Source: an uncultured Methanomassiliicoccales archaeon | Lineage (GTDB): Archaea > Thermoplasmatota > Thermoplasmata > Methanomassiliicoccales > UBA472 | DNA: 64,000 bases | Reading direction: 5' to 3' | NCBI GenBank assembly: GCA_942492955.1 | Contig: OW818644.1 | Location: 770,327-834,326, forward strand | Shown: one piece after another, positions 8,942 to 64,000 of the stretch | How positions within the stretch are numbered: position 1 is the stretch's first letter | Layout: the number at the start of each line of letters is the position of its first letter | Made by a program: the position numbers and the translations under genes | Notes under the pieces: model-generated | Database searches by the model: none | What the model was told of the DNA's origin: nothing | What the model saw: the letters and a program-made list of their open reading frames with translations, nothing else

Positions 8942-9512
8942 TGGGATCGACCGATATCTTGGGGAGGTCAAATCGACCTTGGACAATCTCGATCGCGAAG
9001 ATCTGGAAAGGTTCGCCGATGCGCTCATGAAGGCGTACTCGGAAGGGAACCAGATATTCGTCTTCGGGAATGGCGGCAGCGGTTCCACGGCCTCCCATTT
9101 CTGCGGAGATTTCCTGAAAGGAGTATCATACGGTTTGGAAAAGAGGTTCCGGTTCCTCTGCCTGAACGACAACATCCCTGCTTTACTGGCCATCGCCAAC
9201 GATATCAGTTACGAGGATGTCTTCGTGGAGCAATTGAAGAATCACATGCGCAAGGACGACCTGGTGATCGGGATCTCCGGCAGCGGTAACTCGATGAACG
9301 TGGTCAAGGCGCTGCAGTACGCCAACGACAACGGCGCGGTCACCGTGGCCATGTGCGGCTTTGACGGGGGCAGGATCATCGGCATGGCTGACATCCATAT
9401 ACACGCCCGGATAACGAACATGGAGGTCACCGAGGACGTGCACCTGATCGCCATTCACTGCCTAAAAACGATTTTGAAGGAAAGACTTCAGAACCAGCAG
9501 ATTCAGTGCTGA
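8925..9512 (+). CDS. gmhA: phosphoheptose isomerase (SIS domain), GmhA-like
   Basis: SIS-domain motifs FVFGNGGSGSTASHFCGDF and ISGSGNS. Overlaps the hddA-like gene by 17 nt (alternative ATG at 8931). Confidence 0.85.
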   Translation: MSMKADGIDRYLGEVKSTLDNLDREDLERFADALMKAYSEGNQIFVFGNGGSGSTASHFCGDFLKGVSYGLEKRFRFLCLNDNIPALLAIANDISYEDVFVEQLKNHMRKDDLVIGISGSGNSMNVVKALQYANDNGAVTVAMCGFDGGRIIGMADIHIHARITNMEVTEDVHLIAIHCLKTILKERLQNQQIQC

Positions 9513-9540
9513 ACGATAACAATCCATAGGAGACACAAAC

Positions 9541-10488
9541 TTGAAGATCATAGTGACCGGCGGCGCTGGGTTCATTGGTAGCCATCTATGCGATGCGTTG
9601 TTAGAGAAAGGGCATGAGGTCCTCTGCGTAGACGATCTGAGCCTCGGTTCAGAGGAGAACATCAGACATCTCCTAGGGAACAAGGATTTCCACTTTTACC
9701 GGATGGACGTCACGAAGGGGAACGAATTCTCTAACCTGATGAGGGACAAGCAGATAGGGTGCGTCTTCCACCTGGCGGCCAACTCCGACATCCAGCAAGG
9801 AGCGGCCAACCCGTCTATAGACCTGGAACGCACGTTCATGACAACTTACAAGGTCCTGGAGGCAATGAGGCTGAACGGCGTGCGAGACCTGGTGTTCTCC
9901 TCCACTTCTGCCATATACGGCGAGAAGGACAGGGCTATCTCCGAGGACGAGGGTCCACTGCAGCCCATATCACTGTACGGGGCGGCCAAGCTTTGCTCCG
10001 AATCCTATATTTCGGCCTATTGCCACAACTTCGGGATCAAGGCCTGGATATGCCGGTTCCCTAACGTAGTGGGTGACCGGAGCACGCACGGCGTGATATA
10101 TGACTTCGTCAAGAAGCTGAACAAGGACCCGAGCCGGCTCGAGATCTTGGGCAACGGCAAGCAGCACAAGCCCTACATCTACGTCAAGGATCTGGTCTCC
10201 GGCATCCTCTTCTGCTGGGAAAACTCCGGGGAAACGCTGAACGTCTACAACCTCGGGGTGGACTCAGAAACGACGGTCACGGAAATAGCCGAGATAGTGG
10301 TGGACGAGATGGGGCTCAAGGACATCGATTTCGTCTACACTGGAGGGGACAGGGGCTGGAAGGGCGACGTACCGTATTTCGCGTATGACCTGAATAAGGT
10401 GCATGCCCTCGGATGGTCGGCGTCGAGGACCTCGAACGAAGCGGTGCGTCACTCGGTCCGGATGTTCCTGGCAAATCGCAAGAAGTGA
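9541..10488 (+). CDS. NAD-dependent nucleotide-sugar epimerase/dehydratase (extended SDR)
   Basis: Rossmann motif [26 protein letters not shown] and catalytic YGAAK (YxxxK). TTG start behind a GGAG element. Confidence 0.85.
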   Translation: MKIIVTGGAGFIGSHLCDALLEKGHEVLCVDDLSLGSEENIRHLLGNKDFHFYRMDVTKGNEFSNLMRDKQIGCVFHLAANSDIQQGAANPSIDLERTFMTTYKVLEAMRLNGVRDLVFSSTSAIYGEKDRAISEDEGPLQPISLYGAAKLCSESYISAYCHNFGIKAWICRFPNVVGDRSTHGVIYDFVKKLNKDPSRLEILGNGKQHKPYIYVKDLVSGILFCWENSGETLNVYNLGVDSETTVTEIAEIVVDEMGLKDIDFVYTGGDRGWKGDVPYFAYDLNKVHALGWSASRTSNEAVRHSVRMFLANRKK

Positions 10489-10505: not shown

Positions 10506-11753
10506 TCAACCGGACGGAACCGCGGGTATCCGTCCCCGGGATTCGATTTCCATGTAGGTCCAGCTGACCAAGGTGGTCCCGCCGAAAGCCACCAGCATGT
10601 CCAACGCGATGGTTACCAGGGAATCGTGGAACAGCACGATCAGGGCCACCTGAAGTGCGGTGAAGAACACCATAATCGCCAAATAGACCTTCGAGTCGAT
10701 CGCCAGACCGTAGTTCATGAACAGGTTGGCGATGCCCAGCAAGGCCATGGACATTCCCAGGATGCCCATCCCGGCCGCCGCCCCGATGTATTTGTCTCCC
10801 CCATAGAGAAGCCGAAGGATCTCGGCCGGGAACAGGAAGAAGGTGAGGACCACCACGCCGGTCACGGCAAGGGCGATCAGGACGGAGAGGCGCATCATGA
10901 CCACCGTACCGGCCTTCTTGGCATGCGCCGCCGCCAACTTCGGATAGATCACGATATTGATGGATGAGGGCAGGAACAGGATTATCTTGCTCAGCATCGA
11001 ACACACCGCGTAGAGCCCGGCGGTGTTAGGATCGAGGTACTGCCTGGCCAAGATAACATCAATATTGACCATTATGGTCAGACAGGCGACGGCGATGATC
11101 ACATGCAGGACCGACCCACGCATTTTCGTCAACTCCGATTTTGGCATGGGGGTGGGTCTGAGGCGGATGACATCCCGGATCGAATAGATGGCCACGATCA
11201 GGGCGAGAATCAGACCTATCAGGACGCCCCCCAAGGCCCCCATGATGCCAAACCCGATGACGACCAAGATTATGCCGGTTCCGAGTTTCACCACTGGCCC
11301 GGTGATGCCATAGAACGCATTGTAACGGAACCTCTCCAAACCCTGACTGGTTCCATAACCGACCGGAGAGATAAGCGAGATGATGACCCCGGCCATCAGC
11401 AGGAAGACTGGCAATGTCGATGAAAGATAGATGAAACTGGATATGCTGGGCAAGAGGAGATACATTCCCAGGGCAATGGCGGCCCCGGTCATCGACCCGT
11501 ATACCACCATTTTCCGGACCAACCAGGAGATCTCGTTCTGTCTCCCCTCGACGTTTAGGCGAGAAGACTGCTTGACCAGGAATGTGCTCATCACTTGGGC
11601 CGGCGCTATGGCCAAATAGAACATGGACAACAATGCAGAAAGCTCAGAGAAGCTGGCCGGCGTCATCGTGCCGCTCATGTAGTATTGGAAAAGATAATCG
11701 CATCCTCCACCCAATAGAGTGGCCACTGCCATCATCAATGCCGGCTTGGCCAT
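10506..11753 (-). CDS. Wzx-like polysaccharide/oligosaccharide flippase (MOP superfamily)
   Basis: Polytopic membrane protein. Paralogous to the 30436-31689 product: MAKPALMMAVATLLGGGCDYLFQYYM vs LAKPALLMFVATVIAGGCNYVYQIMM. ATG at 11753 was verified in frame. The ORF-track start at 12017 adds an 88-aa non-membrane, Arg-rich leader that overlaps the divergent gene. Confidence 0.8.
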   Translation of the reverse strand: MAKPALMMAVATLLGGGCDYLFQYYMSGTMTPASFSELSALLSMFYLAIAPAQVMSTFLVKQSSRLNVEGRQNEISWLVRKMVVYGSMTGAAIALGMYLLLPSISSFIYLSSTLPVFLLMAGVIISLISPVGYGTSQGLERFRYNAFYGITGPVVKLGTGIILVVIGFGIMGALGGVLIGLILALIVAIYSIRDVIRLRPTPMPKSELTKMRGSVLHVIIAVACLTIMVNIDVILARQYLDPNTAGLYAVCSMLSKIILFLPSSINIVIYPKLAAAHAKKAGTVVMMRLSVLIALAVTGVVVLTFFLFPAEILRLLYGGDKYIGAAAGMGILGMSMALLGIANLFMNYGLAIDSKVYLAIMVFFTALQVALIVLFHDSLVTIALDMLVAFGGTTLVSWTYMEIESRGRIPAVPSG

Positions 11754-12034
11754 GTCCCCGACCCCCCGTGGGCGATGCAACGGTCGGGATAGGGTATTGA
11801 ATATTATTAATCGATGCAGAGAGACCAGTGGATCCAAGCGCACGATATGGCTCAAAGAACGTTGACGGCCGATTCTGGCTTCCAAGAACGATCTCAGATT
11901 CGGCGAGAGCCCGGAGTATTCATCGGCTGATGGCGCAGGCTTATTGTCCCATGCATCGGATCGCAGGACCTCCCGCCTCCTCAAGGAATATTGATTTATC
12001 CCTGGCAAGCGCTCCACGTGGTGTCGGTGAGCAT

Positions 12035-12853
12035 TTGAAGGTCACGAAGCGATCCGGAGAAATCGAAGAGTTCGACCGTTCCAAGACCAAGATCGCGGTC
12101 ATGCGAGCAGGAACCTCGCCAGATGAGGCTGATGACATCATCAATCGGCTCATGCCAAGGCTCTATGAAGGCATCACCACTGAGGAGATCTACCGTCAGA
12201 TCCGAGGGATGCTCAATGCCCGAAGTGCCGCCCGCTATGGTCTGAAGAAGTCGATCCTAGCCCTGGGACCGGACGGACGCAACTTCGAGACCTTGGTCTT
12301 CCGTCTCTTTCAGGCGATGGGGTACGATGCAAAAGTGAGGCAACTGGTCGACGGACGTTGCCTGACCCATGAGGTGGACGTCATGATGGAGAAGGACGGC
12401 AAGCACTTCATGGTGGAATGCAAGTTCCATAATTCCCTGTCGATCAAATGCGCCATCCAGACCGCATTGTACACCTATGGAAGGTTCCTTGATGTGGATG
12501 CCGGAAGCGACCTCGAATGCCCCTATCTGGTCACCAACACCCGTTTCTCCAGTGAGGTGGTGAAGTACGCAGAATGCATCTGCATGAGGCTGATCGGATG
12601 GAAACAACCAGAAAAGGGCGGTCTTGAGGAGCTCATCGAACGGTACCATTTGTATCCGGTCACCATGCTGGAACTTAAGAGATCAGAGATCAGGATGCTC
12701 CTGGAGAAGGATATTGTCCTGGTGGCCGACGTTCTGGAAAGAAAGGATGATGTCATCAGGTCATTGGGTCGGGACTCTGCCTCGAATGCCTTCCATGCGG
12801 CGGAGATGCTCGGTTTCGTCGGACCGGAGAATCGGACCGCGGGAAAGAACTGA
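12035..12853 (+). CDS. ATP-cone domain fused to a PD-(D/E)xK (Mrr-like restriction endonuclease fold) domain
   Basis: From TTG at 12035 the protein begins (M)KVTKRSGEIEEFDRSKTKIAVMRAG...ITTEEIYRQI, an ATP-cone-like N-terminus. It continues FETLVFRLFQAMGY...HEVDVMMEKDGKHFMVECKF, with D...ExK nuclease motifs. The ORF track starts at 11828 with a low-complexity leader; alternative ATGs lie at 11930 and 11951. Confidence 0.7.
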   Translation: MKVTKRSGEIEEFDRSKTKIAVMRAGTSPDEADDIINRLMPRLYEGITTEEIYRQIRGMLNARSAARYGLKKSILALGPDGRNFETLVFRLFQAMGYDAKVRQLVDGRCLTHEVDVMMEKDGKHFMVECKFHNSLSIKCAIQTALYTYGRFLDVDAGSDLECPYLVTNTRFSSEVVKYAECICMRLIGWKQPEKGGLEELIERYHLYPVTMLELKRSEIRMLLEKDIVLVADVLERKDDVIRSLGRDSASNAFHAAEMLGFVGPENRTAGKN

Positions 12854-12871
12854 TGGAACGGGAGAACATCC

Positions 12872-13978
12872 CTACTCGCTGACCCGAGCCCGATATCCAT
12901 CTATCGCATCCTTGTAGATGTCGAGGTATCGCTCCGACACTTGCTGCCAGGAGATCAATTTGTCACTGAGGGGTCCGACCTTCATGCCCCCTCCGATCGC
13001 TTTCTCGATCAGGGCGGCCACCTCCGTGGCGTCTGGGGGATATTCAACCCCAAAACACCCAGGTTCAGACGTGAACTCGGTGAGTGCCGACGTTCTAGCC
13101 ACGATGCATGGAGTGCCGGACTTCAGCGCCTCAGCGATCACCAAGCCGTAGGCTTCCAGGGCAGAGAGCAAGACCAGGACGCCGGCTTTATGGTACTCTA
13201 CGTTCAGCTGTTCATCGCTGACTCCCTCTAACCATTCCACTTGCCCGTCCAGACCAAGATCGTGTGCGGACTTGACAAGAGAGTCCTTCTCTGGCCCGGT
13301 GCCGACGATGCGGAGCCGGATGACCTTACCCCGACCCTTAAGAACGGACATCGCGGAAAGGATGTGGTCCACTCCCTTGTATTTCACCAGCCTTCCCACG
13401 TAGAGGATCGATCCTTCCCTCGGCACCTCCACTTTCTGGAGATCCATTCCTCCGTTGGGCACTATCACGATACTATCATCGAGAAGATGGAAATCATTCT
13501 GGACCAAGTTCTTCTCGAAGTTCGAAACGCAGATGTTCTTTTCCGACCAATGGTAGATGTTGGCGCCGTAGACCCGATAGACGCGGAACAGAAGGTCTCG
13601 CTTCCTATTTTGCCCATGCCCATGGTAATGTGTCGTAAAAACGAAGGGAAGACCCTGCGAACGGCAATAGAACGCTGCCATCAACGCCTGCGGCGAGTGA
13701 AAGTTATGGATGTTGACAATATCGTAATGCTCCGGAGTGGCGTTCTTGACCAGCCACTCCCTCATTCCCAGATGAATTCCCATCCGTGCAAGACCCTGCC
13801 TGCGGAAGCGTATCACGTGAACCCCGTTGATGACCTCATCGGAATCCTTTAAGAGGTCCATGCAGACCACGGTGCACTGATGCCCAGCAAGAACATGACG
13901 TTCGGCGAGCGTGCGGACCAGGGTCTCCACTCCGCCTATGACCGGATGGTAGTATTTGGTGACCACTAGGATACGCAT
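12872..13978 (-). CDS. family 4 (group 1) glycosyltransferase
   Basis: N-terminal MRILVVTKYYHPVIGGVETLV and a C-terminal GT-B region with EAYGLVIAEALKSGTPCIV (E-x7-E-like). Confidence 0.85.
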   Translation of the reverse strand: MRILVVTKYYHPVIGGVETLVRTLAERHVLAGHQCTVVCMDLLKDSDEVINGVHVIRFRRQGLARMGIHLGMREWLVKNATPEHYDIVNIHNFHSPQALMAAFYCRSQGLPFVFTTHYHGHGQNRKRDLLFRVYRVYGANIYHWSEKNICVSNFEKNLVQNDFHLLDDSIVIVPNGGMDLQKVEVPREGSILYVGRLVKYKGVDHILSAMSVLKGRGKVIRLRIVGTGPEKDSLVKSAHDLGLDGQVEWLEGVSDEQLNVEYHKAGVLVLLSALEAYGLVIAEALKSGTPCIVARTSALTEFTSEPGCFGVEYPPDATEVAALIEKAIGGGMKVGPLSDKLISWQQVSERYLDIYKDAIDGYRARVSE

Positions 13979-14293
13979 ATTCCCCTCAACACCGCGATGC
14001 CTGAATGGGTATGGAAGACAGGTCCAAAAATGTATGGGATAGAAGATATTCAGAATATCGCATAGCTCCGCTCGACTGATTCGCGCAAATCCCTGCGGGT
14101 CTCATGGGCACCAAAACATCAGACATGTCAAACTAAACACCTATCGGCGGACATCGTAATGATTCAGTATCAGCACCAAGATCGATTCGTATCAAGCTGC
14201 CCGATGTCGCCATTTGTGAGTAATAAATTTGCGCGAAAATTCACTTTCCTAAGATTTGACCGGGGCACTGGATCGAATGGGAAAGGATCTCGG

Positions 14294-15118
14294 TTATTTT
14301 CTACCTTTGAAGAGGGCGGACAATGCACCCAGGCCAGATGCGATATATCTGCTGGCTTGATATACCGAAAAACCGACAGCCATGTCTGGGTGTCTGTAGA
14401 ATTCCCTCCAACCCCGTAGGATTGCCGGTCTTATCACACTGATTTGCTTCATCCCTCTTTCCTCATTCTTATCCACGAATGATTTAATGGATTTTCCGTA
14501 ATAATAGTGCTTCTTTAGGACGTCGACAAGATTCGTTGGTTCTCCAAGATGCAATTCTGTTGATTTCGTCATACCGATCTTGAAATTCTTCTTCATTATC
14601 CGATTGTGCAGATCGTAGTCCTCGCCTGCCACTAACTTCTCGTCGAACCCTCCAACCTCTTGGAGAACCTTTCTCGAGAAAAATCTCGCCGCAACGTTAA
14701 GATCGTCATCGACGTAAAAATTCCTTTCAAAGTTCCTCACCTTCGACCAAAAGCTCACGGTCGGATCTGAAATATTGGGTATGCACACGGCATCAAAACC
14801 TGATTCGCATAAGGCCACAGCCTCTGAAACGACATTCTTGTCCACTACGAAATCAGAGTCTACGCGGTACAAGTACTCCCCCTTGGCCTTGCTGAATCCG
14901 AAATTGATCTGAGTGCTCCTTTCAGGTCCAATCTGGTAAATGGTATCGGTGAATCGTTTTGCTATCTCTAAAGTGGCATCTTTGGAAAAATTATCAACTA
15001 ATATTATCTCTATGTACGGATGGGTCTGTTCTTTTAATGATCTCAAGCACCTTTCAAGGTATTTTGAAGAATTCAGCGTGGGTACGATAACGGATACTAA
15101 TTTTCCAGGAGCTTCCAT
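14294..15118 (-). CDS. family 2 glycosyltransferase
   Basis: VSVIVPTLNSSKYLERCLRSLKEQTHPYIEIILVDNFSKDAT and RVDSDF match GT2 motifs. Confidence 0.85.
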   Translation of the reverse strand: MEAPGKLVSVIVPTLNSSKYLERCLRSLKEQTHPYIEIILVDNFSKDATLEIAKRFTDTIYQIGPERSTQINFGFSKAKGEYLYRVDSDFVVDKNVVSEAVALCESGFDAVCIPNISDPTVSFWSKVRNFERNFYVDDDLNVAARFFSRKVLQEVGGFDEKLVAGEDYDLHNRIMKKNFKIGMTKSTELHLGEPTNLVDVLKKHYYYGKSIKSFVDKNEERGMKQISVIRPAILRGWREFYRHPDMAVGFSVYQASRYIASGLGALSALFKGRK

Positions 15119-15370
15119 AGATAGATCACTAGCAGCTTCATTCCTGAATCCAGGGCCGCCATAAAAGAATTGTGGTGAACCGTGGTGTGGTGGTATTCTG
15201 ATAGATCACTCTGAAATGACCGATTGTAACTGCCTAGTTGCCGATTTCAGTTGGACAATTTGGTACGCCTCCCGATAAATGGGATTACACTATTTTTACA
15301 AATTCGAGCGCCCAGTTTTTCATATGGTTATTATATTCGAAATTGGTTGGAGTACAGGAAAGGAATTGAA

Positions 15371-47210: not shown

Positions 47211-49709
47211 TCACCTTACCCTTGGAATAATCAATATGAATATCGAGCCCTTGGTGAAATCTCCCTTCTCCCGATTGTCCACCCAGACCTTTCCTCCATA
47301 ACGCTCGGCCAAGGCGTTGACCACGGACAGCCCCAGACCATGCCCTTCCGCCGCAGACTCGGAATCCAGCTGGTCGAATCTCCGGAAGAGGAAGTTCTTT
47401 CTTTCCTCGGGAATGCCGTGTCCGTGATCGGCCACCGTGATCCGATAGAACTCCCCTCCGTTCTCTGGGTGCTCGGTTACGGTCACCTCTATGGGCTTCT
47501 GGTCACCATATTTGCAGGCATTGCTGAGTAGATTGTAGAACACGTCCTTTAGGAAACTGTCGGCGTTCACCATCAGTTGACCCGGTGGGGTCTGATACGA
47601 TATCTTGATATCGCCATAGAGGGCGTTCATCTGAATATCGTGAATGGCCTGCGCGAGGATGGGTGAAAGATCGACCTCCAATAGCGGGCTCTGCTCTATG
47701 GCCTTGAGCTTCCACAGTTTGCGCACATCGGATATCAGGGAGGATATGTTCTCGGACTGTGCCAAGGCGCTTTTGACGTAGCGCCGCTGTCTCTCATCCA
47801 GCTTGGGATCGGTGAGCAGTATCTCGAGGAACCCGTGGATGGGGACGTTATAATTTGCCACGTCATGCGTCAGCAGGATGTTGTAGACCTGCTGGCGTGA
47901 TGCCTTCTCCTTAACCCGGGTGAAAGTACTTGCGTTCTTGATGGCGGTCGCGGCCAGGACGGAGAACATCTCGATGAGCTTGTACTCCCTCATGGTGAAC
48001 GGCAGCCCCGGTCTCTTCTCCAGCGTGATCACTCCGAGCAGTTCCTCCCCGAACTTCATCGGGACGCTGATCAATGAACTAGGCTCATCCTGAGTGCCAT
48101 CAATCAGCTTTGACCGTTCGTCCAGGTCCGCCCTTTCCAGGAGCATGCCCTGGCCGGTCTTGCCCACCAGCCCGGTGATGCCAGACCCCAGTTCGATCTC
48201 TATCCCGACCACGTCCATCGGAGTCTGGCATACGTTATGGGTGCAGCGCAGTTTGCCGATCTTGTGATCCATCTCGAACAATATGCAGTTCTCGGCGCTG
48301 ACCAGCTGCCTCGCCTTGTGCATGATGGCGACCAGCACTTCGTTATGATCGAGAGTGCTTGACAACACCTTCGATGCATCGTATAGTATCTGGATCTCGT
48401 TGTTGCTGCGGACCAGCCGACGGTGCAGCTTGCCATTGCGATGGGATATCGCCACTTGGTTGCAGAACACCTGTAGAACGGTCTCCTTGCTCATGATGTC
48501 GGACATGGTTTGAAAACTGCCGAATATCGCGCAACCGTAGGACTCGCGCCGGAAGTGTACGGGAAGGCAAATGATCGCCCGGGGCTTTTCGAACTGGACC
48601 GATATCCTGCGGTCCTTCTGCAGATCCTCGGATGTGAAGATGCTGCCATTCTCGACGCTAAGGAAAAGAGGGGTCCCGTCCTCAAGGGGGGATTCCAGTA
48701 GAGCGCGGCCGTTCCGGAAATCAATGCCGGAACAGAACATCTGCGGAACGTTGCCATCGTCTATGAGGCGGAAGACCGCGAAGTCGAAGTCCAGTGCCTC
48801 GACCATGCGGATAAGCTCCTGGTCGATCGACTCGGAAGGGTCGAGGTTGTCGCTTATGTCCCTGGTGGTCTCCGCCAGGATCTCCATGTGCCGGCCAAGC
48901 TGTTCGATCTCCTTCTCCATCCTTACCGCCGGAGTGGGGTCGTTGGTCAAAGCCAGTACGCCGGTTATGTTTCCGATGCCGTCCTTGAGAGGTGTAAGCC
49001 GCCAGTTCATGAACAAGGTTCCGTGCGATGAGCGCAGAGGCATTTCCAGCATGGTGGTTCTTCCCGACAGAACCTCTTGAACTGCCTGCGATAACTCCCT
49101 TTCCCGGATCTCCTTCGGGTCCAGCAGGTCGAAGATCTGAGAGCCAAGCACCTCCGAGCTGGGGCGGGCGACGACCTCCTCCACGGTCTTATTGTACACG
49201 ATGACCTTGCCAGTATGGTCAAAAGCGATGACCATCAGGTGAACGAACGTCATCATCTCCTCCAGGAGCTGTGACGACAAATGCATGGATCCCATTATGG
49301 CGTTCTCTACCTGCATCCTGCGGCCGAAGACGCTGACCCCGGTCACGGTGTCCCTTTCCAGGACCGGACTGACGTTCAGCTGGAATACCGCTTCTGTCCC
49401 GCCGAGGACCTGGAGTTTGACCGTTACGCTCCTGGCCCCACCCACGTCCTTCGAGCAGTTTTGAATGATCCCGGCAAGCAGCTCGGCATCGGATCCGCAC
49501 GCCAGGTCGGACAATTTGTTGCCCAGCATGGAATGGTCTGAGCATCCCAGCGCCATTTCGAATGCTTTGTTGTAGTACTTCAGATGACCTTCGCGATCAA
49601 GCGAGCACATCAGTACCGGGACTGAATCACCAATATGTGAGTTGGGAATCGATGGAATCGGCGAAACCCCGGGTTGAGAATTGTTCTTTGACTCGTCCTG
49701 TTCCACCAA
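47211..49709 (-). CDS. multi-PAS/GAF sensor histidine kinase
   Basis: 832 aa. The C-terminal HATPase_c region reads ADHGHGIPEERKNFLFRRFDQLD...GHGLGLSVVNALAERYGGKVWV. The H-box region is LTHDVANYNVPIHGFLE. The N-terminal portion is PAS- and GAF-like. The start is uncertain (TTG 49709 / GTG 49706). Confidence 0.9.
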   Translation of the reverse strand: MVEQDESKNNSQPGVSPIPSIPNSHIGDSVPVLMCSLDREGHLKYYNKAFEMALGCSDHSMLGNKLSDLACGSDAELLAGIIQNCSKDVGGARSVTVKLQVLGGTEAVFQLNVSPVLERDTVTGVSVFGRRMQVENAIMGSMHLSSQLLEEMMTFVHLMVIAFDHTGKVIVYNKTVEEVVARPSSEVLGSQIFDLLDPKEIRERELSQAVQEVLSGRTTMLEMPLRSSHGTLFMNWRLTPLKDGIGNITGVLALTNDPTPAVRMEKEIEQLGRHMEILAETTRDISDNLDPSESIDQELIRMVEALDFDFAVFRLIDDGNVPQMFCSGIDFRNGRALLESPLEDGTPLFLSVENGSIFTSEDLQKDRRISVQFEKPRAIICLPVHFRRESYGCAIFGSFQTMSDIMSKETVLQVFCNQVAISHRNGKLHRRLVRSNNEIQILYDASKVLSSTLDHNEVLVAIMHKARQLVSAENCILFEMDHKIGKLRCTHNVCQTPMDVVGIEIELGSGITGLVGKTGQGMLLERADLDERSKLIDGTQDEPSSLISVPMKFGEELLGVITLEKRPGLPFTMREYKLIEMFSVLAATAIKNASTFTRVKEKASRQQVYNILLTHDVANYNVPIHGFLEILLTDPKLDERQRRYVKSALAQSENISSLISDVRKLWKLKAIEQSPLLEVDLSPILAQAIHDIQMNALYGDIKISYQTPPGQLMVNADSFLKDVFYNLLSNACKYGDQKPIEVTVTEHPENGGEFYRITVADHGHGIPEERKNFLFRRFDQLDSESAAEGHGLGLSVVNALAERYGGKVWVDNREKGDFTKGSIFILIIPRVR

Positions 49710-50347: not shown

Positions 50348-51412
50348 ATGGATGAGGGTGACTTCACCAAGGCTCGTTCGATGCTTTTTCCAAGACAGGT
50401 TCTTGCGGGGCATGGTGCTATCGAAGCAATCCCCCAAATGTGCAAGGATTTCGGTCTGACTGGAACCGCATTGATCGTTGCTGGTGACAAGACCATGAAG
50501 GTCGCGGGAGATATTGTATCCGAAGGATTGCTCAAGAACGGCTATGGTGTCCAGTCCATCATGGTCGGAGAAGCCACTGAGGACAATCTGAAGAAAGTGG
50601 AACAGGCGGCAAGAGAGGCCAAGGCGAGATTCCTTTTGGGAGTCGGCGGCGGCAGCAAGATCGACCTGGCCAAGATGGCGGCGATGAACACTGGCACAGA
50701 GTTTCTTTCCGTACCAACTTCAGCTTCTCATGATGGCATCGCATCTGGACGAGCATCGATCCGCAACGATAAGGGGCCGATGTCGTTGGACGCCAAGGTC
50801 CCGCTCGGTGTGATCGCAGACACGAACATCATAGCGAAATCACCATACCGGTTGCTGGCCTCGGGATGCGCCGATGTCATCTCGAACTCTACCGCCTTGA
50901 TGGATTGGGAATTCGCCAGGAGGCTTCGGTACGAGAGCTTCAGCCGATCGGCCTATGCCCTGTCGAACTACACGGCACAGACCATCATTGACAACGCTGA
51001 CCTGATAAAACCGAATCTGGAGGAATCCGTCTGGATCGCCATCAGGCCGATAATAATTTCTGGGATCTCAATGAGCGTGGCAGGAAGCTCCAGGCCGACG
51101 AGCGGTTCGGAGCACATGTTCTCCCACGCGTTGGATATAATTGCACCGGGGAAGGCATTGCATGGGGAGCAGTGCGGAGTCGGCTGCATCATGATGATGT
51201 ACCTGCACGGCGGAGATTGGTGCCGCATCAGGACAGCATTGATGAAGATCGGGGCACCCACCTCCGCCAAGGAGCTGGGCATCTCCAAAGAGCAAGTGAT
51301 CCAGGCCTTGGTAACGGCCCACAAGATCAGGAAGGATAGGTTCACCATCCTGGGCATGGGGTTGACCTATGAGGCTGCAGAGAGGATCGCGACGATAACG
51401 AAAGTTATCTGA
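50348..51412 (+). CDS. egsA: sn-glycerol-1-phosphate dehydrogenase (archaeal lipid backbone synthesis)
   Basis: VGGGSKIDLAK, PTSASHDGIASG and GSEHMFSHAL are G1PDH (iron-ADH superfamily) motifs. Confidence 0.9.
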   Translation: MDEGDFTKARSMLFPRQVLAGHGAIEAIPQMCKDFGLTGTALIVAGDKTMKVAGDIVSEGLLKNGYGVQSIMVGEATEDNLKKVEQAAREAKARFLLGVGGGSKIDLAKMAAMNTGTEFLSVPTSASHDGIASGRASIRNDKGPMSLDAKVPLGVIADTNIIAKSPYRLLASGCADVISNSTALMDWEFARRLRYESFSRSAYALSNYTAQTIIDNADLIKPNLEESVWIAIRPIIISGISMSVAGSSRPTSGSEHMFSHALDIIAPGKALHGEQCGVGCIMMMYLHGGDWCRIRTALMKIGAPTSAKELGISKEQVIQALVTAHKIRKDRFTILGMGLTYEAAERIATITKVI

Positions 51413-54275: not shown

Positions 54276-54980
54276 TCAGATCATCTCCGATCCGGCGTGC
54301 ACGACGATGCCCTTGTTGGTGATCTCGTAGGGAGTGATCTTCCTGGAGTGCGTGGTCCGCCTCATCTTGATTATGCGCAAGGACAGCTGCATCTCGCTCC
54401 TCTCGACCCGGTCCACGTAGCGAAGGGAGATCACGCCGTCGGCCACGTATTCGACCAGTCCGTCCCTCGATGCCAACGGGTTGTCGTCCCTGGTCTCCGC
54501 GGTCATCAGGCAGGTGGCGTTCGTCCTCTTGATCATCTGGGACAGGTTGAAGAGGTTGATCCTGCGCTCATGCTCGTCCACGAACAGCATGTTCAGCAGC
54601 GAGACCGAATCGAACACGATGCGGGTCGCCCCGAACTTCGAGATGAAATCGGGCAGTTCGCTCTTGATCCTGGATATCGTGGTCTTAGCGTCGCTAGGCT
54701 CCAGCTTCACGATCACCATCTTCTGTGCGTCGATCATAGGTTTGAGGTCCCAGCCATGCGACTTGGCATCCTCTATGATCGAGTTCTGGTCCTCTTCCAG
54801 CGAGATGTAGATCACTTTCTCCCCGTTCGCCAATCCTTGATTGAGGAACTGCAGTCCGAACGTCGTCTTCCCCGTACCGAACGATCCCATGACCACGAAC
54901 GTGTGCGACTTCGGGACACCGCCCTCTAGGAGCTCGTCCAGTCCGTCAATTCCGGTCTTAACTCGGTCCATGTTGCTCAC
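54276..54980 (-). CDS. KaiC-like / RecA-superfamily ATPase (single domain)
   Basis: Canonical Walker A VVMGSFGTGKTTFGLQF and Walker B RIVFDSVS. N-terminal TGIDGLDELLEGGVP is typical of the KaiC/RadA-like family. GTGA overlap with the upstream gene (alternative ATG at 54971). Confidence 0.85.
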   Translation of the reverse strand: MSNMDRVKTGIDGLDELLEGGVPKSHTFVVMGSFGTGKTTFGLQFLNQGLANGEKVIYISLEEDQNSIIEDAKSHGWDLKPMIDAQKMVIVKLEPSDAKTTISRIKSELPDFISKFGATRIVFDSVSLLNMLFVDEHERRINLFNLSQMIKRTNATCLMTAETRDDNPLASRDGLVEYVADGVISLRYVDRVERSEMQLSLRIIKMRRTTHSRKITPYEITNKGIVVHAGSEMI

Positions 54981-55822
54981 CCAATCCTTTCTGTGTCGAT
55001 GACCACTAGGCCGCTCTGGGCGGTGACCATGGTCGCGAACCTAGCAATGCGCTCCCTGTCCAAGTGCGGCAGGATGCTCATGAACTTCTCCACGTACAGA
55101 TAGCGCTGCCTCTTGGAGGAGGAGACGAAACGGCTCCATTCGAAGACCAATGCACCATCCACCGAATCCATGATCATACGCTGGAGCCTCTCGTCGATGA
55201 TATCCTTGGTAAGAAGCAGGTAAACCACTCCGCCCCACTTCTTGCTCACCCTCTGCATGCCGCGAAGCACCGCCACCAGGTCCCTTGGGTCGATCTTCTG
55301 GTTCAGCACCAGGTCGGTCAGGGAGTCGATGATCACCATGCTCTTCGGGGCGTTCTCATCGAGATAGTTGACAAGACCTTCAAGCACGCCCTCTTCGTCG
55401 CTCACGTTGGAGAACAGGGCGGACGAAGTATCACCGGACCAGCTCTTTGGCACCAGGGTCTGCCTGAAGTATTTCGAGGAAAAGTCCTTGAAGATCACGT
55501 TCTTTTCGAACGATTCATAGAAGTCCAGATTGAAGGACATCTCGATCTCCTGGAGTATGTCCTCCTTGGACCTTGAGAATGTGATGTAATGTATCGATTC
55601 CGGCATCATCCGCCCCTTGACGCTGTGACCGAGGAAGAACTCGGCGGAATCGGGATTCTCTTTGATAAGCGATATCTTAGCCGCCGAGGTCAACGCATAT
55701 TCCTGCTGGCCTGCCCCTAGATCACCCAGAAGGAGGACCACAGAACCAACGGGCATGCCTCCCCTGATGATACTGTCAAAATCAGCCACTCCCGTAGGAA
55801 TCCGTTTCACTGGTGCATCCAT
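54977..55822 (-). CDS. KaiC-like ATPase paralog with degenerate P-loop
   Basis: TGVADFDSIIRGGMPVGSVVLLLGDLGAGQQEYAL has the KaiC-like N-terminus, but GAGQQ replaces GxGK[ST]. Walker B-like MVIIDSLTDL is retained. Confidence 0.7.
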   Translation of the reverse strand: MDAPVKRIPTGVADFDSIIRGGMPVGSVVLLLGDLGAGQQEYALTSAAKISLIKENPDSAEFFLGHSVKGRMMPESIHYITFSRSKEDILQEIEMSFNLDFYESFEKNVIFKDFSSKYFRQTLVPKSWSGDTSSALFSNVSDEEGVLEGLVNYLDENAPKSMVIIDSLTDLVLNQKIDPRDLVAVLRGMQRVSKKWGGVVYLLLTKDIIDERLQRMIMDSVDGALVFEWSRFVSSSKRQRYLYVEKFMSILPHLDRERIARFATMVTAQSGLVVIDTERIG

Positions 55823-55902: not shown

Positions 55903-56370
55903 TCATTTCAGCGCCCTGATGATGAGTTCGATGAGATAGTCTGACGCTAACCTTTTCACGACCGTCCTATCACCTTCGAAGAGCATCCTCTCCGCCCATA
56001 TTTTATCGCCGTCATCAATGGCAAAGTATACCAGGCCGACCGGCTTCCCCGGCCTCTCGCCGCCAGGGCCAGCGATCCCTGTGACGGAAACCCCTATGCT
56101 GGTATGGAACCTGTTCCTGACCCCGGCGGCCATCTCCAACGCGCACTGCTCGCTCACCGCGCCTTGATAGGTGATGGTTCCTTCCTTTACCCCTAGCATC
56201 TCGACCTTCGAGCGATCACTATAACAAACGACAGCGCCTAGAAAATAATCGGACGAACCTGGCACGTTGGTGATCAGATCGCTCGCCAGACCGCCGGTGC
56301 ACGACTCTGCCAGGGAAACGGTCGCACCCTTGGACCTAGCTATCTTCCCCAATTCCACTTCCAGAGTCAT
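55903..56370 (-). CDS. CinA C-terminal domain protein / nicotinamide-nucleotide amidohydrolase (PncC-like)
   Basis: TVSLAESCTGGLASDLITNVPGSSDYF and GVSVTGIAGPGG are CinA-C hallmarks. Confidence 0.85.
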   Translation of the reverse strand: MTLEVELGKIARSKGATVSLAESCTGGLASDLITNVPGSSDYFLGAVVCYSDRSKVEMLGVKEGTITYQGAVSEQCALEMAAGVRNRFHTSIGVSVTGIAGPGGERPGKPVGLVYFAIDDGDKIWAERMLFEGDRTVVKRLASDYLIELIIRALK

Positions 56371-56911
56371 CTTCCATCTTCCTCCTTAGATTCGGGGTCA
56401 GGTCCCTGATGCGGTTGATGCCGTCGATATCATCGATCACCTTGACCACGGCCGGCGGTACCAGGTCCTTCCATTCCGCCCCCATCGACATCCTGCGCCT
56501 GATCTCCGTCCCGGAGTAGATCTCCCGGTTGAACATGGGAGAATCGTGGATCTCATATCGCGCCTCGGAGAACAGCCTCCTGGTCAGACTGTTGTTGGTG
56601 AAGACCACCTCGAAAGGCGGCACCATGGAGACCACATGAGAGACCCAAACGGCATAGCGGTTTATGTCCACGATCGGGACCAGGAAATACTCCTTCAGTC
56701 CCTCGTCCTTGAGAGCGCGGGAGATCATCAGATGCCTCTCACCGGCGGTAAAGGGATTCTCATAGGTGTGGGAATACTGGGCGCTGCCGATTCCGATTAT
56801 CAGCGAATCGCATTTCTTGGCGATGGATCGCACAACCTCCAGGTGACCCTTATGGAAAGGCTGGAAACGCCCAATCAGCAGGCAGTTCGAGAAATGCTCC
56901 GGTACGTCCAT
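56336..56911 (-). CDS. nadM: nicotinamide-nucleotide adenylyltransferase, archaeal type
   Basis: LLIGRFQPFHKGHLEVV (the (H/T)xGH nucleotidyltransferase motif as in archaeal NMNAT) and a later SGTEIRRRM motif. The 3' end overlaps the cinA-like gene by 35 nt. Confidence 0.9.
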   Translation of the reverse strand: MDVPEHFSNCLLIGRFQPFHKGHLEVVRSIAKKCDSLIIGIGSAQYSHTYENPFTAGERHLMISRALKDEGLKEYFLVPIVDINRYAVWVSHVVSMVPPFEVVFTNNSLTRRLFSEARYEIHDSPMFNREIYSGTEIRRRMSMGAEWKDLVPPAVVKVIDDIDGINRIRDLTPNLRRKMEDDSGSGIGEDS

Positions 56912-57288: not shown

Positions 57289-57496
57289 TATTTCCACTCC
57301 CCTATGGGAAGCCGACCCTCGTATCCTCGTCCCGCTATTTCAGCTCGTTCTACTTTAAAGAACTTGCCAGAGATGCCTACCGCCGAGATATAGGGACTCG
57401 TTTGTCTTTCCGTCCGGGCCGACCTGAAGCATAGGTCGTGCCAGCGTACACGAAGCAGTTGAACAGAGTTATGACGGTTCTCGCGAGAGGCCTGGA

Positions 57497-58360
57497 TCAC
57501 TCCTCGACGATCACCGGTTCGAAGACAACTCTCTTGATGTTGTGTCTCGAGAACAGCTGATACACCTTGTGGCTCACGATCCGCTCTGGACGAGCATCAT
57601 ACAGACCGAGCCATTCCGAGGTCTCGTTGAAATCCTTAGCGTCCCTCAGGGACTGCCTCCCGTACCTGATGGGAACGGCCACACCATAGATTGGATCCAA
57701 CGCTCGGTTTCGGCCGAACTTGCCGCACGTGCATCGTTTTGGGCCCGCTTCGGGCAGCTTTGCATCGACTATCTCCGTGGTCGGGGACATAGGGGGCAGG
57801 GTGTTAACGATATGGAGCTGGCTATAACCTGGGACCAGCATGTTCTTCTTGTACCTGAGCAGGGGCCAGAACTCGGCGCCCGTCAGGCCGGCATCCTCGA
57901 TGAGCTTCCTGAGGCGGTCGGTCACCAGGAACTCGTAGGTCCAGTTCAGGGCCAGGATGTCGTTCCTGCCGAATCTCGGCAAGCCCTTCACCTGGAACGG
58001 TCTGTCCTGGATCGCCCCAAAGCCGCACTTGGGGCAGGCGGTGCCGAGGTCATACGACGCCCTCTGCCATGCGTCCATCTCCTCCTCTGGCTGTGGATAT
58101 CCCCAGTACCCGGCCTGGCTCATACAGAGGAACTCGGCACTGTCCAATTCCTTCACCGTGAACTGCTTTTCTCTCATATCTGTGGGTCTTATTTCCATCC
58201 TTTGCAGTTCGTCCATGAGGCAAGGGTACCTCTCGTCGTCTATGTAGAGGTAGACGATGCCGACTATTTTCTCCTCTACGTCGATCTCCAAAGAATCGAA
58301 AAGGCCCCTTAGCCGATCAAGTTCTTCTGGACGGAAGACTAACCTCGATCTGATTCTCAT
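57497..58360 (-). CDS. putative immunity protein for the upstream Rhs C-terminal toxin (Imm11/double-CXXCG-like C-terminal domain)
   Basis: ATG lies 9 nt after the Rhs TAG stop, behind GGAGGG. The C-terminal ~180 aa carry CPKCG and a second Cys pair (RCTCGKFG). They also carry two segments, FLVTDRLRKLIEDAGLTGAEFWPL and IVSHKVYQLFSRHNIKRVVFEPV, reminiscent of Imm11/DUF1629-type immunity proteins (from memory). Confidence 0.65.
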   Translation of the reverse strand: MRIRSRLVFRPEELDRLRGLFDSLEIDVEEKIVGIVYLYIDDERYPCLMDELQRMEIRPTDMREKQFTVKELDSAEFLCMSQAGYWGYPQPEEEMDAWQRASYDLGTACPKCGFGAIQDRPFQVKGLPRFGRNDILALNWTYEFLVTDRLRKLIEDAGLTGAEFWPLLRYKKNMLVPGYSQLHIVNTLPPMSPTTEIVDAKLPEAGPKRCTCGKFGRNRALDPIYGVAVPIRYGRQSLRDAKDFNETSEWLGLYDARPERIVSHKVYQLFSRHNIKRVVFEPVIVEE

Positions 58361-58369
58361 GGACCCTCC

Positions 58370-61300
58370 CTAGGGAAGATACGGAGATATGGCTCTGAAC
58401 CATTCAGAACCCTCTCCATAGACTCCAGCGTAGATTCCTCTGAGCTGACCTTGAACTTGTTCATCGACATATTTTGAGCCATATGGTAGATGGCCCCTTA
58501 ACATCTGTGTAATTGTATTGTGATCAGCATGCGTCAGAGCCACTGCAGGTACGTCTTTCATACTCTTGAACCCTAGGTTCTTAGCGACCCTCCATTCCAG
58601 GAGCTTGTGCCTCTCCATGCCCTTGGGCAGGGGAATCTTCTGCAGCTCCCCATACGGCATGATTTCGCTTTTGCCAAGATGACCTACTAAATCTGGCGCT
58701 CGAGCAGCATCGTTCATCCGCCTAGATTCCAAGAGGTCCTTAGCCCTTTCAACAGCCTTCTCGCCATCTAAGGCTTTGTCCGCCGCCCTCTCTGCATCGA
58801 ACCCCTTGTCGATGATCTTCCCGACCTTGACCAAGCCCCCGATCGCGGGGAGGAACGGCACGGCGGTGCACACGACATCAACAGCGGTCCATCCCCAGTT
58901 CTCCGGTGTGGGATCGTTCCATAGCTCCACAATGTCCCATGCTAAACATGCGACGTCGAAGATAGTGTCTAAGAACGCACCGGTCGGGTCGGTATGTATC
59001 AGCGGGCTGTTCGCGCAGTACACGTACCGGTTCAGCGTCTGGGGCATGGAAAGGTGTCCGAGTTCGGGATCAAGTGCCATGAATCTGCCGGTGCTCGGGT
59101 CCATGTACCTTGCCGAAAGGTACACCAGACCGGTCGGCGAATCGACGATCTCTCCGGTGTAGGAGAACTTGTCCGTTCCGGCCGGGGAATAGATCTGTCC
59201 GAACGGCTTGTAAGTGACCGCCCATGACATGCAGTCCTGGATGTTCTTGTTGCCGTTGCGGAGCACGAACCGGGTGCTGCCCAGCGCGTCGGAGATGTAG
59301 ACGTAGCTCTCGCCTGCGCTCACGACCCGGAGGTCCAGCCCTCCGCTCAGGTAGATGTCCTTCTGACCACGGCCGTCGCTGGAGTTGAAGTAGATGGGGT
59401 CGTGTCCTGCGTAGATGTACCGGGTGATGGTCCCGGACTCCTCGGTCTTGGCGCGGGCGCCGTTGGCGTCATAGTAGTAACGGGCCACGGTCGTCAGCGC
59501 CCCCCAGCCGCCGGAGTACAGCTGCTTCCTGACCTCGGTCATCTGGCCGAACGCGTTGTAGATGTAGTTGTAGCGGACAGCGGAGGAGTTCTTCCAGAAG
59601 ACGTTGCCGTTGGCATCGTACACGTAGGAGTACGTCCCGTCCAACGTCAGCTTGTTGTACGTGGTGTATGTGGATGAGACGTTCGTGCCCTCGTTCTTCC
59701 AGATACGGTTTCCGACGCTGGAGTAGCCGTACTGGATCGTTCCGAAGGTGGAGTTGGCCATCGCTTTCGTCAGCCGGCCGAGCGAATCGTACCAGTAGTA
59801 CTCGTTCCCGGCCGAGCCGAAGGCGTCCTTGATGCTCGAGACGTCACCATCGGCGGTGAAATCATAGTTCAGGTCGAGGATGGTCACCCCGCTGCTGACG
59901 TTCACCGCCTTGATCTTGCCCACCATCCCGTTCGTCTTGTACGTGTACGTCACCGAACAGTTGGAGTCGCAATACCGCTTCGACGCCACGGAATCGTCCG
60001 GGTTGTAAGTGACGTTGAGGAGGAGGGTGTTCCCCATCTTCACGTCCACCGCCCGGCCATAGCGGTCGTACAGGTACGTTATCCGCCTGGCGTCCGGATA
60101 GTCGACGTAGACCACGTCCCCGACGGCGTTGTACGCGTACGTGAACGTGTAAGTGTTCGGCGAAACCTTCTGCACCGTGCGGTACAGCCGGTCGCGGCTG
60201 TCGTAATGGTAGGAGATGTTCCCCAGGCTGTTGACCTTCTCCGAGACCAGCCCGTCGGCGTTGTACCTCGTACGGATCGTTTCGCCGCCGCCAGTGACCC
60301 GGATGTTGTTGCCGGCGGTGTCGTAGGCGCTGGTGGTGACCTGCCCGGACCTTGATGTGGCGGTGAGGACCCGGCCAGCCTCGTCATAAGCGTAAGATTC
60401 GCTCTTCGCGTCCGGATAGGCGATGGAGGTCTGCCTTCCCAGCGTATCGTACGACATCCTGGTCACCTCCCCGTTGTCCTGCCTTACGGTGACCAGCTGG
60501 CCTACGGCGTTGTAGGCCATCCTGGTGACGTAGAAGGCGGACGCGGTGATGTACTCCCGGGTCTGGTTCAGCCGGCCGAGGTCGTCAAAGACGCTGACGG
60601 TCTTATGGCCCAGCTCGTCCAACGCGGTCACCAGCTTGTTCCTGTCGTCATAGGTCGTGTACGAGATGGTGTTGTCCGGGTTCTTGACCGAGGTGACCCG
60701 GCCCAGGTAATCATAGGTATACGTGACGACCCGGTTCATCTCGTCCGTGGCGGTGGCCACCTGGTCCTGCCAGTTGTAGGTCTTTTTGGTGACCGAATAG
60801 ACAACGCTCCCGGTTCCGTACCGCTCCGCCTTCATCTCCCGGCCGAGCCGGTCGAAAAAGACGACGCTCTTGCGGCGGAGCTCGTCGTAGACGGTGGCCT
60901 TGTTCGCCGAGTCGTCAAACAGCGTATAGGAGTTCGTGTAGTCCGGGTTCTCCTGATAGATGACCCGGCCGATCTCATCATATTGCCAATGACTCGTGTG
61001 TCCAAGGGGATCCGTCGCCGAGGTCACCCAGCTATTCAAGTGGTCATGATCGTAGCTTGACTTCGCCGAGGTCAGATCGTTGAATGTGAGGTCATCCACG
61101 TACATCCGGAATTCATCAATGAAGGCCCATGAACCGTAGGTGTAGATCTCGAAGCGCACCTTGACGCACTGCGACCAATCGATGTTGAAATCGCTGTTCG
61201 GATAGAGGGCCGGGTTTAGCCAGGTGTTGGTGGCGGGTTTCCCCCAGATGCATTTTGTGATCGAGGGGTTGCTGACCGTCTTGTTGTTGGTAGAGCCGCT

Positions 61301-64000: not shown

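Follow-up and report, generated by a model that had tools for sequence, protein, structure and literature searches.

A predicted Rhs/YD-repeat polymorphic toxin with an exchangeable toxin–immunity cassette in a Methanomassiliicoccales archaeon

Introduction

Classical Rhs polymorphic toxins, such as Photorhabdus Rhs1 (PMC8636562) and the predicted RHS proteins of Methanosarcina acetivorans (PMC3482391), have a shell of YD repeats and a core recognised by the TIGR03696 model. The aspartyl-protease signature of the core consists of two DPxG(L) motifs, with the cut after the second (PMC8636562). A hypervariable tail follows right after the DPxG motif, an immunity gene comes next, and relatives carry orphan cassettes with core or linker homology. 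In 2012, comparative genomics described systems of this type, cassettes and immunity genes included, in M. acetivorans (PMC3482391). A passage in an article of 2021 cites Makarova et al. (2019) for the prediction of such systems in numerous archaea and calls them "not experimentally characterized" (PMC8416519). A 2024 study of a haloarchaeal type VI secretion system (T6SS) tested toxin/immunity pairs, with 'Rhs' occurring only in its reference list (PMC11566945). Here we describe a locus in a stretch of 64,000 nucleotides (the window) from an uncultured Methanomassiliicoccales archaeon (GenBank assembly GCA_942492955.1, contig OW818644.1, positions 770,327 to 834,326 of the forward strand), which very probably encodes an Rhs toxin together with the matching immunity cassette and belongs to an archaeal genome. 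A first-pass annotation of the window had regarded archaeal Rhs toxins as predicted yet without experimental characterisation, and the searchable literature agrees (PMC3482391, PMC8416519).

The window locus shares with the classical systems the YD shell, the TIGR03696 core, the two DPxG motifs and the arrangement of tail, immunity gene and orphan cassettes. Unlike them, it is found without a PAAR/VgrG, T6SS or type VII secretion system (T7SS) context, and its homologs have a signal or anchor helix. It also differs in having a very large N-terminal region with modules resembling carbohydrate-binding modules (CBMs) and a domain of ~606 aa, and in the spacing of the DPxG motifs, which are 22 rather than the canonical 17 residues apart. 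The TcB-TcC cocoon of Tc toxins and the teneurins likewise have a YD shell that is closed by an aspartyl-protease plug and holds the C-terminal domain inside. In contrast to Tc toxins, the window system has no TcA-like translocator, and the presence of immunity genes and of orphan cassettes speaks for a role in microbial competition rather than for a eukaryotic target.

For the toxin and its partner, the comparison is with MXAN_0050/MXAN_0049 of M. xanthus. MXAN_0050 is an AHH DNase, and MXAN_0049, the prototype of Imm11, has been shown by experiment to confer immunity to it (PMC12077131, PMC12077181, PMC6627406). All listed partners of Imm11 are HNH/EndoVII nucleases (Tox-AHH, Tox-HNH and Tox-SHH; PMC3482391), and the phyla given for Imm11 and Tox-AHH are bacterial only (Zhang et al., 2012; PMC3482391). 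The window pair resembles the M. xanthus pair in the fold match of the immunity protein, in Imm11 matches within the immunity family, in the AHH of the toxin consensus and in the position of the immunity gene directly downstream. However, the toxin family lacks a match to PF14412, conserves ExR, H, T, R and PYG, and reads RHK, not AHH, in the window. At 287 aa, the window immunity protein is larger than MXAN_0049; it has an additional alpha/beta domain at its N-terminus as well as a CxxCG motif, and neither of the M. xanthus delivery routes, T6SS or outer-membrane exchange, applies to the window system. The SitA6/double-CXXCG systems share CxxCG with the window immunity family and, via its Imm11 affinity, the Pfam clan (PMC12077181).

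Results

An Rhs gene with a predicted protease core

The minus-strand reading frame runs uninterrupted from the window edge, where it is still open, to a TAG stop at 58370-58372. This is as the first-pass annotation had described it, together with the DPTG motif at 58979-58990, the 202-aa tail between DPTG and the stop, the junction TAG-GGAGGGTCC-ATG and the 287-aa open reading frame (ORF) that follows. Homologs of the gene reach 2,798-3,234 aa, measured as stop-to-stop frames, so that ~900-1,350 aa of the N-terminus are expected beyond the window.

Model searches confirm the assignment to the Rhs/YD polymorphic toxins that had been made from the letters alone. The frame scores above the cutoffs of Pfam RHS_repeat (PF05593; 108 bits, cutoff 22), TIGR01643 YD_repeat (YD_repeat_2x; 62.9 bits, cutoff 15.8) and TIGR03696 Rhs_assc_core (65.2 bits, cutoff 32.5), and the last match covers aa 1597-1674 and terminates exactly at ...NSPLIHTDPTG. 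YD repeats are present, as had been claimed, but their number, put at dozens, was a generous count: there are 7 strict YxYDxxG motifs, and a loose regular expression gives 19 matches across the visible protein, of which a few lie beyond the shell. With the E. coli-type RHS core equivalog NF041261 the score is 72.4 bits, far under the cutoff of 2000, and we regard the window protein as a relative of the enterobacterial Rhs elements rather than as an ortholog of them.

The end of the shell reads ...YMDPSTGRFMALDPELG...NRYVYCANSPLIHTDPTG, and the two core motifs are DPELG (59057-59071) and DPTG. The core therefore carries both motifs of the cleavage signature, and cleavage after DPTG itself is predicted. 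The middle region of the protein (61031..62848) matched no Pfam family; compared with its counterparts at two related loci introduced below, L001 and L004, it is 38-43% identical, and many columns of the alignment are invariant. GC content is ~0.58-0.62 in the shell and drops to 0.48-0.51 along the tail.

Tail and immunity gene are exchanged as a unit

With the middle region as a probe, 19 further metagenomic loci were recovered. The core end could be recognised in 20 proteins (~14 distinct). Over the last ~700 aa before it, including the TIGR03696 core, these are 36-69% identical to the window, and their shells bear ~10 unrelated types of tail. The shell closest to that of the window (L005, 69%) has an unrelated tail, and a shell of 41% identity (L004) has the same toxin, 60% identical over 163 aa.

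The limits of the exchanged unit were set by DNA homology. L001, a metagenome contig of 114 kb, encodes a full-length Rhs protein that is 45% identical to the window over 1,543 aa and has a different, hydrophobic tail, followed by an ORF with multiple transmembrane segments. Farther downstream lies an orphan cassette: a stand-alone tail of the window type, 9 nt, and a 287-aa ORF 80% identical to that of the window. The window and orphan cassettes are 80.5% identical over 1,509 nt, from 58978 to 57471, and this homology begins at the first base past the DPTG codons and stops 26 nt beyond the immunity stop. Conversely, the DNA homology of the shells ends at 58980 (L005) and 58979 (L013). Synonymous divergence (pS) between the window and L001 is 0.39-0.44 in the cassette and 0.71 in the shells, and since it is lower in the cassette, cassette and shell have separate histories. 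Swapped C-terminal toxin/immunity cassettes on a conserved shell, one of the expectations of the first-pass annotation, are thus seen in the relatives, with ~10 tails and breakpoints at 58978-58980.

Two further loci carry the same toxin or one of its family. L004 (contig MGWC01000018.1, 55.8 kb, labelled "Euryarchaeota archaeon RBG_19FT_COMBO_56_21") encodes a 2,867-aa Rhs protein in which the ~105-aa toxin domain sits on another linker, with the 287-aa ORF next. The window-type linker is absent from this main gene and occurs in an array of orphan modules after the immunity gene (Table 1). L013 (5921-16507) belongs to the same shell clade and has the same toxin family with the canonical HH (VHHLVEKR), followed by an immunity homolog of 42% identity.

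Positions 7961-8284 of L005, past the Rhs gene and a first small ORF, hold a fragment homologous to the shell just upstream of the core (59322-59491 of the window), with which a further orphan module probably begins. The L001 orphan cassette is flanked by a 128-aa helix-turn-helix/transposase-like ORF (9480-9866) and an 84-aa ORF resembling the C-terminus of tyrosine recombinases (11324-11578), both judged by eye, which hint that mobile-element activity, besides homologous recombination, moves cassettes. On a 2.55-Mb NCBI contig, P0041 is a 288-aa paralog more than 90% identical to the 287-aa protein (P0004), and P0001 (317 aa) consists of an Rhs core end and the window toxin type (86% identity). 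Together these are a second cassette, either an orphan or part of a second Rhs locus, and it could give cross-immunity.

A probable cognate immunity gene follows the toxin

The spacing of 9-10 nt between the toxin and the 287-aa ORF is also found in L001 and L004. In searches of all loci with hidden Markov models, the ORF turned up directly after the toxin domain in 4 of 4 independent pairs and at none of the loci with other tails, among ~10 other tail types. The first-pass annotation had proposed it as the cognate immunity gene, and this proposal is strengthened by the linkage and by an affinity to Imm11: the ORF is not conserved independently of the toxin domain. The ORF has 37 homologs with an invariant WGYPQP plus CxxCG, is under purifying selection (pN/pS 0.22-0.27), and adjoins a toxin with an AHH-like consensus. 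No signal sequence was found in the 287-aa protein.

Pfam Imm11 (PF07791/DUF1629) is matched at E ≤ 1 by 23 of 34 family members, with a best E of 6e-07. The AlphaFold2 (AF2) model of the 287-aa protein has a pLDDT of 92.3, and its sole Foldseek match in the PDB at E ≤ 0.001 is 6a4c (MXAN_0049; E 3.4e-05, probability 1.00). These matches indicate a placement within Imm11 at the level of the clan, not of the family. From family, fold and strict toxin linkage we infer an immunity role, and neutralisation of the toxin is predicted.

SitA6 (DUF2380, PF09533) and double-CXXCG (PF09535, TIGR02264) were rejected as alternatives for the pair: PF09535 is missing from the Pfam families listed for members of the immunity family, TIGR02264 and TIGR02269 are absent from the NCBIfam scans, and DUF2380 appears weakly (E 0.0065) in 1 of 51 toxin relatives.

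The toxin domain belongs to an uncurated family

The tail comprises a pre-toxin linker, which matched no Pfam family, and a toxin domain of ~105 aa. Among 5.8 billion proteins, only a handful are close relatives of the tail, and a profile search with the toxin domain among 1.84 billion representatives yielded 281 remote relatives at E ≤ 1e-3. In 146 of the 152 best-scoring of these, which are 62-3,118 aa long, the domain ends no more than 25 aa from the C-terminus. It stands directly after an Rhs core in 23 of 51 toxin relatives, and after PT-HINT or PT-TG (the latter in 2 of the 51) in others. This family of ~281 representatives is not covered by Pfam or NCBIfam and is new here.

The family signature is [EQ]AHH[LI]xExR...H-x3-T-x3-R-x3-PYG...Y, with invariant H, E, R and H. 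The window domain holds all conserved residues bar the second His, which is replaced by Lys (RHK; H125K). The AF2 model of the domain (pLDDT 85.2) places the invariant His residues where a strand ends and where a helix begins. With a pI of 9.2 the domain is basic, and it is under purifying selection (dN/dS 0.28). On balance we lean towards an HNH/EndoVII-like nuclease, because of the AHH in the consensus, the placement of the His residues, the basic pI and the fact that the listed Imm11 partners are all nucleases of this kind. Membership in Tox-AHH (PF14412) itself was rejected: there is no match for the window tail or any of the 51 relatives at E ≤ 10, and the published signature, [AG]HH followed by N, H, H and Y (PMC3482391), is unlike the EAHH followed by ExR, H, T, R, PYG and Y of the family.

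N-terminal modules and predicted export

The N-terminal part of the visible protein contains a module of ~137 aa that is duplicated in tandem with a period of 573 nt; the first ~411 nt of the copies are ~96% identical. The period exceeds the maximum of Tandem Repeats Finder (500), and the duplication was detected by direct comparison. A match to Pfam Sialidase-like_CBM is borderline (28.1 bits, cutoff 27). Of the 'lectin-like repeats' noted in the first-pass annotation, the repeats therefore stand, while their lectin affinity comes down to this one borderline score, and surface-glycan binding was overstated. More copies may exist upstream, since copy 1 is cut at the window edge; the L001 homolog aligns to a single copy.

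In each of the 13 distinct full-length homologs, the N-terminus opens with residues rich in K/R, followed by a conserved hydrophobic helix of ~19 residues, [TI]FA[WI]F..[LI]M....F[QN][VI], which has the character of a Sec-type signal peptide or signal-anchor. As this N-terminus is common to the 13, Sec export of the window protein is probable, and display at the surface is likely with it. The first-pass annotation had called the delivery route unknown, and for the export step these homologs point to Sec. Sec-dependent export of many such toxins has been grouped under 'T2SS' (Zhang et al., 2012; PMC3482391).

Table 1. Coordinates of the Rhs locus in the window and of the orphan array of L004 (the latter on contig MGWC01000018.1).
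Feature	Coordinates	Strand	Basis or remark
Rhs/YD-repeat polymorphic toxin gene, C-terminal ~60-65%	58370..64000	minus	ORF and translation; 1,876 codons in window
CBM/lectin-like module, copy 1, cut by window edge	63590..64000	minus	tandem duplication
CBM/lectin-like module, copy 2	63017..63427	minus	Pfam Sialidase-like_CBM; copy aligning to the single L001 copy
Clade-specific middle region, ~606 aa	61031..62848	minus	without Pfam match; kept in all related loci
YD-repeat shell	59213..61030	minus	RHS_repeat and YD_repeat matches, YD motifs; last ~700 aa to core end 36-69% identical to 18 related loci
Rhs-associated core (predicted aspartyl-protease plug)	58979..59212	minus	TIGR03696; two DPxG motifs
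Mobile tail and immunity cassette	57471..58978	minus	limits set by DNA homology
Pre-toxin linker (helical/hydrophobic, PT-TG-like), first part of exchangeable tail	58688..58978	minus	common to L001 orphan and L004 orphan modules
Predicted toxin domain, ~105 aa	58373..58687	minus	conserved C-terminal module; window motif ERHK
Spacer of 9 nt, GGAGGGTCC, with Shine-Dalgarno-like GGAGG	58361..58369	minus	from toxin TAG to immunity ATG
Cognate immunity gene candidate, 287 aa	57497..58360	minus	Imm11-clan fold, extra N-terminal alpha/beta domain
L004 orphan array (after immunity gene), module 1	11978-12871		degraded core, DPTG, window-type linker and different toxin (QAHHAFPV)
L004 orphan array, ORF of 200 aa	12837-13436
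L004 orphan array, module 2	13501-14169		linker and third toxin
L004 orphan array, ORF	14139-15161		Pfam TsiV (immunity to VRR-NUC toxins), 38.1 vs 25 bits

Genomic context

The archaeal surroundings described in the first-pass annotation hold up at curated cutoffs. An NAD(P)-dependent glycerol-1-phosphate dehydrogenase gene (50348-51412) scores 493.6 bits against an equivalog cutoff of 413, and an archaeal-type NMN adenylyltransferase (NMNAT) gene (56336-56911) scores 232 bits with TIGR01527 (cutoff 181).

The NMNAT gene overlaps a CinA-family gene (55903-56370) on the same strand by 35 nt, directly downstream of the Rhs locus, and a KaiC/ArlH-like ATPase gene comes next (54977-55822). A histidine kinase of 832 aa with multiple PAS/GAF domains (47211-49709) lies a few kb from the locus. 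The 64-kb window contains no tRNA genes and no Rfam families at gathering threshold.

Discussion

We consider it likely that the archaeal chromosome carries an Rhs/YD polymorphic toxin gene of ~2,800-3,200 codons, of which the 3' two-thirds are in the window, with a cognate immunity gene, and that the system works as follows. The protein would be exported or anchored by an N-terminal Sec-type signal or anchor helix like that seen in the 13 homologs, and its N-terminal region with one or two CBM-like modules might be displayed at the surface. As in other members of the family, the YD shell would enclose the 202-aa tail, and the aspartyl protease of the core would cut after DPTG and free it. The last ~105 aa would form a small, basic enzyme from a family that is AHH-like and uncurated, most likely an HNH/EndoVII nuclease that acts in the cytoplasm of the target. 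In the producer, the cytoplasmic 287-aa protein of the Imm11 clan would neutralise the toxin by binding it, and toxin and immunity protein are probably co-translated through the 9-nt GGAGG spacer. Tail and immunity gene (57471-58978) would be exchanged between shells as a unit, by recombination at the core end or in the linker, where breakpoints are seen, and orphan cassettes in relatives would serve as donors.

Several observations weigh against this model or parts of it. The N-terminus of the window protein itself lies past 64000 and is unseen, and the DPxG spacing of the core departs from the canonical one. The 287-aa protein of the window falls under the Imm11 threshold (E 0.13; 12 vs 22.1 bits), its model has low TM-scores to MXAN_0049 (0.34 and 0.44), and the profile of the immunity family did not reach MXAN_0049 by sequence, giving only spurious DotG repeats. 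The charges of toxin and immunity protein are not consistently complementary (the L004 immunity protein has a pI of 8.9), and we make no use of this property. The toxin domain matches neither Pfam models, including AHH, nor NCBIfam models, nor any PDB sequence, and Foldseek finds nothing significant in the PDB for its model (the best nuclease is NucB, E 2.6). The second His, which is kept in 128 of 142 motif-bearing relatives, is Lys in the window, and this could alter or abolish catalysis. Finally, the genes beside the metagenomic loci give no diagnostic indication of taxonomy.

The points concerning the toxin leave room for a possible alternative, in which the locus is an Rhs toxin/immunity pair but the ~105-aa domain is some other hydrolase or a non-enzymatic inhibitor, and its AHH-like motif is coincidental. 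Besides the lack of any match in Pfam, NCBIfam or the PDB, the lack of a significant fold match and the Lys of the window, this alternative can draw on the conserved H, E, R, H, T, R and Y, a signature unlike that of Tox-AHH. However, the EAHH consensus and the modelled position of the invariant His at the strand end and helix start would be compatible with a beta-beta-alpha-metal finger, and the listed Imm11 partner families and the pI of the domain also speak for a nuclease.

The same substitution, at what would be a catalytic position, could mean that the window cassette encodes a decayed or inactive toxin, retained because its immunity gene guards against related toxins of neighbours; the paralogous cassette (P0001/P0041) on the same 2.55-Mb contig would fit this scenario. 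We consider it improbable, since the Lys variant recurs in 11 of the 152 analysed relatives, including full-length Rhs proteins of 2,856 and 3,118 aa, the toxin domain is under purifying selection, and the ORF is unbroken and continues in frame from a core that is itself intact.

An even less probable reading makes the protein mainly a surface adhesin or a teneurin-like self-recognition protein, with another role, such as that of a chaperone, for the downstream ORF. It would account for the large extracellular N-terminal region with its CBM-like module and the 606-aa domain lacking a Pfam match, and for the apparent lack of genes for a secretion machine in its vicinity; it is opposed by the hypervariable tails with breakpoints exactly at the autoproteolysis site, by the arrays of orphan tails and ORFs, one of which includes a member of the TsiV immunity family, and by the placement of the window ORF in the Imm11 clan. 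That the Rhs locus is bacterial DNA, through contamination or a chimeric assembly, is hardly credible: polymorphic toxin systems are far commoner in bacteria, the remote toxin relatives come without taxonomic labels, and the GC content of the shell is slightly higher than that of its neighbours, but both archaeal signature genes are contiguous with the immunity gene and no more than ~8 kb from it, the 2.55-Mb contig encodes an identical copy of the 287-aa protein, which argues against a binning artefact, and the same architecture occurs in the independently assembled, Euryarchaeota-labelled genome on the 55.8-kb contig.

The concept is unchanged: Rhs systems already described have this architecture, this cassette logic and probably this export route. 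What is new here is the clade-specific architecture, the uncurated toxin family, an archaeal immunity protein of the Imm11 clan and a precisely delimited cassette. This protein takes the Imm11 clan beyond the phyla given in 2012, into archaea. More tentatively, we speculate that this distinct archaeal clade of Rhs proteins, with signal-anchor, CBM-like modules and ~606-aa domain, represents a self-sufficient form of contact-dependent inhibition that is exported by Sec and displayed at the surface without a T6SS- or T7SS-like machine, and that gets its toxins through an archaeal S-layer and membrane in a way not yet described. The toxin would then found a new family of HNH-like nucleases, in which Lys may replace the second His, with the first archaeal immunity proteins of the Imm11 clan.

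Most conflict systems between archaea are so far predicted ones, and the locus offers a clean test case. Its assets are a cassette of 1.5 kb (57471-58978), a toxin of ~105 aa with four or five catalytic candidates, and a confident model of the immunity protein. The orphan copy, the paralogous copy in the same genome and the canonical HH variant in L013 (HH vs HK) provide natural comparators.

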